From: Escherichia coli
GTDB taxonomy: Bacteria > Pseudomonadota > Gammaproteobacteria > Enterobacterales > Enterobacteriaceae
DNA: 64,000 bases
Direction: 5' to 3' (one strand)
Assembly: GCF_044324875.1 (NCBI RefSeq)
Contig: NZ_CP172185.1
Shown piece after piece: positions 62,902-64,000 of this stretch. The position numbers and the translations under genes are program-made. The first letter of the stretch is position 1, and each line of letters begins with the position of its first letter. The notes beneath the pieces are model-generated. The model did not search any database, was not told the origin of the DNA, and worked only from the letters and a program-made list of their open reading frames with translations.

Positions 62902-63660
62902 ATGAGCCTGACCCTCACACTTACTGGCACTGGCGGCGCACAGGGCGTTCCCGCATGGGGCTGTGAGTGCGCGGCCTGCGCCAGAGCGCGGCGCTCACCG
63001 CAGTATCGCCGCCAGCCATGCAGCGGCGTCGTGAAGTTTAACGACGCGATCACCCTGATCGACGCCGGGCTGCACGATCTCGCCGATCGCTGGTCGCCCG
63101 GATCGTTCCAGCAGTTTTTGCTGACGCACTACCATATGGATCACGTGCAGGGGCTGTTTCCGCTGCGCTGGGGCGTGGGCGATTCGATCCCGGTCTACGG
63201 CCCGCCGGATGAACAGGGCTGCGACGATCTGTTTAAACATCCGGGCCTGCTTGATTTCAGCCACACGGTGGAACCGTTTGTAGTGTTTGATTTGCAGGGA
63301 TTACAGGTCACGCCGCTGCCGCTCAATCATTCGAAACTCACTTTCGGCTATTTACTGGAAACGGCACATAGCCGGGTGGCGTGGCTGTCTGACACCGCAG
63401 GCCTGCCGGAAAAAACGCTGAAATTTTTACGCAATAATCAGCCACAGGTAATGGTGATTGATTGCAGCCACCCACCGCGCGAGGATGCACCGCGTAATCA
63501 CTGTGATTTAAATACCGTGCTTGCGCTGAATCAGGTTATCCGCTCGCCACGGGTGATTCTGACCCATATCAGCCACCAGTTTGATGCGTGGCTGATGGAA
63601 AACGCACTGCCGTCGGGGTTTGAGGCGGGGTTTGATGGGATGGAGATTGGGGTGGCGTGA
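62902..63660 (+). CDS. phnP: Metallo-beta-lactamase-fold phosphodiesterase PhnP
   Basis: 252 aa with HxHxDH motif ([10 protein letters not shown]). Confidence 0.95.
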
Positions 63661-63682
63661 TGGGAGGGAATGTGCGCGCTGG

Positions 63683-63795
63683 CCCCCTCACCCTAACCCT
63701 CTCCCCAGAGGGGCGAGGGGACCGATTGTGCTCGATATTGAATATTGCGCTGGTTTTCTCCCTCGCCCCATTGGGGAGAGGGCCGGGGTGAGAGG
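63683..63795. repeat. Long imperfect palindrome (intergenic repeat element) downstream of phnP
   Basis: CCCTCTCCCCAGAGGGGCGAGGGGA ... TCCCTCGCCCCATTGGGGAGAGGG, flanked by CCCCTCACCC / GGGGTGAGAGG. Confidence 0.6.
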
Positions 63796-63818
63796 CGATG
63801 CCTGCTCCATACCCAACA

Positions 63819-64000
63819 TCAACGCCCATACTCATCTTCCATTCTCCGCTCTTCATCTTCTAGCTGCCGACGCTCCTGATCCAGCTGGCGCTGGCGATCG
63901 TCCAGCTGCCTGCGGCGATCTTCAAACTGGCGGCGGCGATCGTCATATTGTCTGCGCCGATCGTCGTTCACTTCACGCTGCCAGCCGTCGTCGCGCGAAT
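63819..64000 (-). CDS. yjdP: YjdP, 3' part only; repeat-rich R/Q/D/E protein
   Basis: Manual reverse-strand translation ...DDRRRQYDDRRRQFEDRRRQLDDRQRQLDQERRQLEDEERRMEDEYGR*. Confidence 0.75.
   Translation of the reverse strand, partial: SRDDGWQREVNDDRRRQYDDRRRQFEDRRRQLDDRQRQLDQERRQLEDEERRMEDEYGR

Follow-up and report, generated by a model that had tools for sequence, protein, structure and literature searches.

On the whole, our analysis shows that the number of heptads in the charged repeat at the 3' end of yjdP is almost fixed, yet has changed several independent times by in-register 21-nt insertions and deletions that are flanked by microhomology. It is very probable that yjdP is a conserved gene restricted to Enterobacteriaceae, which encodes a small protein exported by prediction and of which the repeat tract makes up the C-terminal half. 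The DDRRRQL repeat is already catalogued and is part of the curated family name, and the importance of the present results is modest and lies mainly in annotation. The additions here are the near-fixed heptad number, the predicted charged helix with a single hydrophobic stripe, and a 9-nt repeat in the predicted signal peptide as the variable one.

The window, that is, the whole stretch of 64,000 nucleotides of Escherichia coli analysed here, ends inside a minus-strand open reading frame. Positions 63819-63998 are translated as SRDDGWQREVNDDRRRQYDDRRRQFEDRRRQLDDRQRQLDQERRQLEDEERRMEDEYGR followed by a stop, which gives the last 59 codons of yjdP, and the final 2 bases of the window are part of the codon preceding these. 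The last 441 bases are 99.8% identical to E. coli PCN033, the closest genome, in which the full yjdP has 330 nt and encodes 109 aa (L001:1760-2089), and in which RefSeq annotates this stretch as phnP, then 'yjdP: DDRRRQL repeat protein YjdP'. The name 'DDRRRQL repeat protein YjdP' is found in the RefSeq annotation of 5,404 of the 5,426 complete E. coli genomes. Against the NCBIfam equivalog model NF041443 (DDRRRQL_YjdP, curated cutoff 90 bits), the full PCN033 protein, of which only the final 59 codons fall inside the window, scores 147.4 bits with E = 1.2e-43 over profile positions 1-101 of 101. The Pfam family PF28054 (YjdP) is precomputed for all YjdP homologues; a Pfam release older than PF28054 gives only noise for YjdP, with no family at E <= 10. 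The window gene agrees with the NF041443/PF28054 family in the motif, the 109-aa length, the predicted signal peptide and the position beside phnP, and there is no substantive difference, only Asn61 in the window allele for the Ser61 of most E. coli. The family is small, with 59 representatives at 50% identity among 1.84 billion proteins, and the named homologues all belong to Enterobacteriaceae, including Escherichia, Shigella, Citrobacter, a Klebsiella MAG, Buttiauxella, Cronobacter dublinensis and Entomohabitans.

The position of the gene is in line with this family assignment across genera. In the last 3 kb of the window phnM, phnN, phnO and phnP lie on the plus strand, and yjdP is convergent with phnP both here and in E. 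coli genomes. In Citrobacter and Buttiauxella yjdP is near phnP, 1-2 genes apart, and in Cronobacter it adjoins PhnH/YjdM. In E. fergusonii and E. albertii it is near glyoxalase genes, with YjdM also near in E. albertii. The gene has stayed where the phn locus, or its remnant, ends. The features of the gene and of its repeat in the window are given below.

63819..64000, minus strand: 3' part of yjdP, codons ~50-109, cut by the window end (translation, PCN033 identity, NF041443)
63819-63821, minus strand: TGA stop of yjdP
63840..63965, minus strand: six 21-nt units encoding six heptads (Tandem Repeats Finder, codon-register listing, shuffles, AlphaFold2)
63945-63965, minus strand: heptad DDRRRQY
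63924-63944, minus strand: heptad DDRRRQF
63903-63923, minus strand: heptad EDRRRQL
63882-63902, minus strand: heptad DDRQRQL
63861-63881, minus strand: heptad DQERRQL
63840-63860, minus strand: heptad EDEERRM
63819..63839, minus strand: degenerate seventh unit EDEYGR plus stop
63912..63941, minus strand: exact direct repeat pair GATCGCCGC, 9 nt, 21 apart (63933-63941 and 63912-63920)
63832..63860, minus strand: exact direct repeat pair GAAGATGA, 8 nt, 21 apart (63853-63860 and 63832-63839)
In the same tract: exact direct repeat GACGATCGCC, 10 nt, 42 nt apart
In the same tract: exact direct repeat CAGCTGGA, 8 nt, 21 nt apart

The original prediction described tandem DRRRQ-type charged repeats at the 3' end of yjdP, and its peptide is found exactly in the minus-strand translation. 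Each heptad carries one hydrophobic residue (Y, F, L, L, L and M in turn), the other positions being D/E, R or Q, and in the degenerate seventh unit Y107 and R109 are invariant in close homologues. With Tandem Repeats Finder, 63885-63965 is detected as an array of period 21 with 3.9 copies, 77% matches and a score of 83. In the protein there are 27 identities at lag 7, compared with 8.5 ± 2.5 in residue shuffles (0 of 20,000 reach 27), and with the maximum taken over lags 2-20, still none of 5,000 shuffles reaches 27 identities. The heptad periodicity is far above chance and is no effect of composition. That the near-periodic repeats are mirrored in direct repeats of the DNA, as had also been proposed, is borne out by 91 of 156 identities at lag 21, to be compared with 52.7 ± 6.1 in codon shuffles (0 of 20,000), and by the exact direct repeats, the longest of which have 8-10 nt; the 21-nt units themselves are imperfect.

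We then consider the number of repeats across strains. Six heptads are present in 8 of 8 alleles spread over the complete-genome ranking, and 60 evenly spaced E. coli genomes show no insertion or deletion in the tract. In a large protein collection, many YjdP alleles have 102 aa, with one heptad lost, and a 123-aa allele in E. albertii has two additional heptads through a near-perfect 42-nt duplication. DNA alignments reveal at least five distinct in-register deletions of 21 nt, each with 3-9 nt of flanking microhomology.

Deletion event 1: alleles P0040 (102 aa) and P0030a; microhomology GATCGCCGC (9 nt); the commonest variant
Deletion event 2: allele P0030b; microhomology CAG; protein the same as that of P0030a, DNA unlike event 1
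Deletion event 3: allele P0028; microhomology TGA; arose in the Asn61 allele type of the window
Deletion event 4: allele P0025; microhomology GATCGCC (7 nt); found in two SNP/neighbourhood backgrounds
Deletion event 5: allele P0018, which loses ERRMEDE; microhomology GAAGATGA (8 nt); on a metagenome scaffold

Among the three exact repeats spaced by 21 nt in the window allele, two are sites of observed deletions. All insertions and deletions seen at the DNA level are whole multiples of 21 nt and in register, and rarer alleles at -1, -5 and -9 residues are seen at the protein level only. To obtain the frequency of the deletions, junction-specific 60-mers were searched in the 5,426 complete genomes at an E-value limit strict enough to leave out half-matches. 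The junction of event 1 is present in 16 of these genomes and that of event 3 in one, while the junctions of events 2 and 4 are found in none of the 5,426 complete RefSeq genomes, their alleles occurring in draft or metagenome assemblies only. Altogether, with the junctions of events 1-4 searched, five-heptad alleles are detected in 17 of 5,426 complete E. coli genomes (0.3%), which is a lower bound given that four junctions were tested. The event 1 protein is widespread in draft assemblies, being indexed in 2,561 blocks of the protein collection.

Nearly all strains keep six copies of the unit. The original prediction held that such a tract is prone to slippage; whole-unit changes of 21 nt with microhomology at their junctions are indeed found, but they are rare, and slippage is read from the junctions. 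A comparison of repeat number across strains had been suggested as the check, and it shows that the number differs (102-aa and 123-aa alleles), with six heptads in almost all. Instead of an identical number everywhere together with no expression, we thus find a number that differs and a gene that is transcribed and stress-induced (PMC5105897). Units would be gained and lost by replication slippage or by misaligned recombination between the short exact repeats of neighbouring units. Where identical deletions occur in different backgrounds, some of them could be due to recombination and not to recurrence.

The substitutions in the tract tell of its age. When the repeat of PCN033 is compared with that of E. 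fergusonii, 23 codons show synonymous and 6 non-synonymous differences; against Citrobacter the counts are 18 synonymous and 4 non-synonymous, and in both comparisons the substitutions lie mostly at third codon positions. This synonymous excess and the third-position changes indicate purifying selection on the annotated yjdP frame. Six heptads are common to Escherichia and Citrobacter, and the heptad pattern is present in the distant homologues of the Klebsiella MAG, Buttiauxella, Cronobacter and Entomohabitans. These alignments show the repeat units to be old, with amino acids conserved across genera and DNA diverged at synonymous sites. On the whole, the heptad tract is an old, imperfect and selected repeat, not a hypermutable one.

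The remainder of the protein can be read as follows. The N-terminus of YjdP, which lies outside the window, consists of MKR, FPLFLLFTLLTLSTV and PAQA followed by D, with a 15-residue hydrophobic core and no lipobox. Signal-peptide cleavage is read by the -3/-1 A-x-A rule, by which we infer MKRFPLFLLFTLLTLSTVPAQA to be a Sec-type signal peptide with its cleavage site before this D. The mature protein so predicted has 87 residues and a net charge of -8. The acidic segment of 39 residues at its start (net -7) contains DIIDDxIGNIQQAINDAY, the most conserved motif of the family, and its 48-residue repeat part is nearly neutral, with 69% D, E or R. In the AlphaFold2 prediction for mature YjdP, made with a 14-sequence alignment, mature residues 2-18 form a helix of low confidence, 19-32 are a disordered linker (pLDDT < 50 at 21-30), and 33-86 are a single uninterrupted helix of 54 residues with pLDDT 86-97, which covers the repeats exactly. 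The repeat helix would be ~8 nm long in this model.

In this predicted helix, position a of the heptad is hydrophobic in 6 of 6 units and position d is R, R, R, E, E, E, and one hydrophobic residue per heptad would form a single stripe along the helix. A conserved Gln precedes the hydrophobic residue of each heptad, a pattern that persists at only 40-60% identity among homologues. The DDRRR spacing gives acid-to-Arg pairs at i/i+3 and i/i+4; acid-then-base spacing of this kind is helix-stabilising, as in ER/K helices, and the pairs would stabilise the helix of YjdP likewise. Loss or gain of a unit would shorten or lengthen the helix by two turns and leave the hydrophobic stripe and the salt-bridge pattern intact. 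The structural period equals the DNA period, and it is plausible that whole-unit variants survive for this reason. A two-copy AlphaFold2 model with fused linker, built to probe self-association, reaches a pTM of 0.46 with the helices retained, and gives no Foldseek match to a hairpin or bundle; the monomer model has no Foldseek match in the PDB, as is expected for a lone helix.

Three other explanations of the tract have to be weighed against these results. One is that the tract is a contingency locus of phase or antigenic variation, in which frequent switching of copy number is an adaptive strategy. Length alleles do exist and arose repeatedly, and the product, being predicted as exported, could face the environment. 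However, the units are imperfect (77% identity) with a longest exact repeat of 10 nt, the 21-nt unit never shifts the frame, 99.7% of complete genomes are without the tested variants, conservation of the six heptads extends from E. coli as far as Citrobacter, and the repeat codons are under purifying selection, all of which makes this explanation very unlikely. Compared with VNTR and contingency loci in general, yjdP is alike in that units are lost and gained in register with microhomology at the junctions, and differs in that its heptad repeats are imperfect, its unit is in frame and its variants are rare (0.3%). Even less credible is that the tract acts as a DNA or RNA element, either a GATC cluster bound by Dam or SeqA or a structured RNA. 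The GATC sites at 63878, 63896, 63917, 63938 and 63959 are indeed two helical turns apart, with a spacing of 21 nt, or 18 nt for the first pair. Nevertheless, each of them is an Asp-Arg dipeptide written GAT-CGN, equally dense clusters occur in other 90-nt stretches of the window, sites are lost in K-12 and O157, and Citrobacter, Cronobacter and Buttiauxella have 1-3 GATC per gene without a 21-nt array. As for a structured RNA, Rfam gives sub-threshold noise only, and for either form the substitution pattern is that of coding sequence. The GATC cluster is probably incidental, a by-product of the Asp-Arg codons.

The last alternative regards the tract as a disordered polyampholyte tail, whose heptad periodicity is a mere relic of duplication. 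It draws on the 69% of D, E or R in the tract, on the lack of a solved homologue or fold match, and on the fact that AlphaFold2 can over-predict helices in charged repeats. Against this, genera at only 40-60% identity conserve both the recurring hydrophobic residue, one in every seven, and the Gln before it, the AlphaFold2 confidence is very high over the repeats and low elsewhere, and the acid-then-base pairs at i/i+3 and i/i+4 favour a helix. We therefore regard a disordered tail as improbable and retain the predicted helix, with a selected repeat of six heptads, as the preferred reading.

Compared with known helical systems, the YjdP tract resembles an ER/K-type single alpha-helix (SAH) with one hydrophobic stripe added. 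In sequence and in the AlphaFold2 model, the likeness lies in a long predicted helix of acidic and basic residues with acid-to-base pairs at i+3 and i+4. The differences are that YjdP uses Asp and Arg where SAH domains use Glu and Lys, that it has a hydrophobic seam at every seventh residue, conserved across genera and missing in SAH domains, and that it is periplasmic by predicted export. With the coiled coils of Lpp and the Skp arms it shares the 7-residue periodicity and a helix of ~50-55 residues, a length similar to that of the mature Lpp helix. Unlike in these proteins, position d is charged (R/E) in YjdP and there is no a/d hydrophobic core, and unlike Lpp it has neither a lipobox Cys nor a C-terminal Lys for attachment to peptidoglycan. 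No homology to envelope coiled coils of the Lpp/Skp type is detected; a sequence-profile search of the PDB yields no solved relative, and its coiled-coil matches are weak noise (M protein, Skp and GCN4 fusions, E = 0.003-0.9, the best being M protein at 0.003). A canonical a/d coiled coil was considered for the tract and rejected, on account of the Arg or Glu at position d and of the missing hydrophobic a/d core. Kinship with the LTxxQ proteins CpxP, Spy and ZraP was rejected as well, as there is no LTXXQ or Metal_resist match in Pfam at E <= 10 and no sequence relative in the PDB.

Published expression data give some hints to the function. A LolCDE inhibitor raises the yjdP mRNA 9.5- and 10.6-fold, and genes of the Rcs, Cpx and sigma-S regulons rise as well (PMC5105897); yjdP is also listed in the table of 'top 20 repressed genes' in a study of acid-resistance regulation (PMC5217608). 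In the searchable literature, with b4487 included as a search name, no yjdP phenotype and no detection at the protein level were found. With low confidence, we suggest that YjdP may be a periplasmic protein of the envelope-stress response, whose charged helix may self-associate or bind a partner in the envelope. YjdP belongs to the small, predicted periplasmic proteins of E. coli that are induced by envelope stress, and the natural alleles with 5, 6 and 8 heptads would be ready reagents for its study.

Beside the heptads, yjdP has a second repeat, located in the hydrophobic core of the predicted signal peptide and outside the window. This is a perfect 9-nt repeat, (TTCACGCTG)n, encoding (FTL)n, with the alleles below.

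L007:308-664 and L008:308-673, minus strand: (TTCACGCTG)n alleles, codons 9-30

Its expansion adds 9 or 12 residues to the hydrophobic core, giving alleles of 118 and 121 aa in place of the usual 109 aa. The expanded form is present in 435 of 5,426 complete E. coli genomes (8%), ~155 of them with 6 units and ~280 with 5. The truly variable repeat of yjdP is this 9-nt repeat of the signal peptide, not the DDRRRQL tract. The expansion might alter the export route or the cleavage of the signal peptide. One may go further and regard YjdP as a stress-induced periplasmic spacer or tether, in which the helix length (5, 6 or 8 heptads) and the (FTL)n length serve as functional dials, like the length of Lpp that sets the periplasmic width. 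If this were true, lineages would differ in how far the protein reaches, how it is exported or how it is retained in the membrane, these properties being tuned by repeats gained and lost in register; we consider it a highly speculative idea with a very small chance of being right.

The spacer between the convergent genes phnP and yjdP contains another repeated element, which is separate from the protein repeat.

63684..63795, no strand assigned: GC-rich inverted repeat in the spacer where phnP and yjdP converge, which is 3' UTR to both; arms of 36 nt, 83% complementary

The RNA fold of 63684-63795 has -86.6 kcal/mol with z = -6.3. The element is multi-copy in the genome and shows presence or absence between strains. 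Its variation gives spacers of 27 to 158 nt among strains, and this palindromic element is the main source of length variation in the interval. The element carries the HPG1/HPG2 motif pair, GGGAGAGGGTTAGGGTGAGGG and GGGAGAGGGCCGGGGTGAG, reported as a G-quadruplex/hairpin switch and recorded there for the yjdP-phnP interval (PMC5100583). Over 63400-64000, the Rfam matches are no more than sub-threshold noise from miRNA and IRES models, located at the palindromic spacer; the promoter scan found no promoter, and PADLOC returns noise only. Two 'terminator-like' matches inside the heptad repeat, on the non-coding strand, are regarded as artefacts of the GC-rich repeat.

Finally, the neighbour upstream of yjdP depends on the lineage (L001:2158-2475, L003, L009). 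K-12-like strains have a full-length rpiB there, PCN033-like strains have a truncated RpiB-family gene of 105 aa beside yjcS, and strains of the O157:H7 type have a hybrid histidine kinase (OI167 island; PMC10128022). The O157-type alleles also have a distinct start of yjdP, its first 8 codons reading MKRHSTLF, and this 5' difference suggests a recombination boundary inside the sequence for the signal peptide. The yjdP gene of E. coli FLI21 is interrupted midway by an IS1X2 element, which leaves two pseudogene fragments (L010:2021-3126), showing that yjdP is dispensable in at least one clinical isolate.
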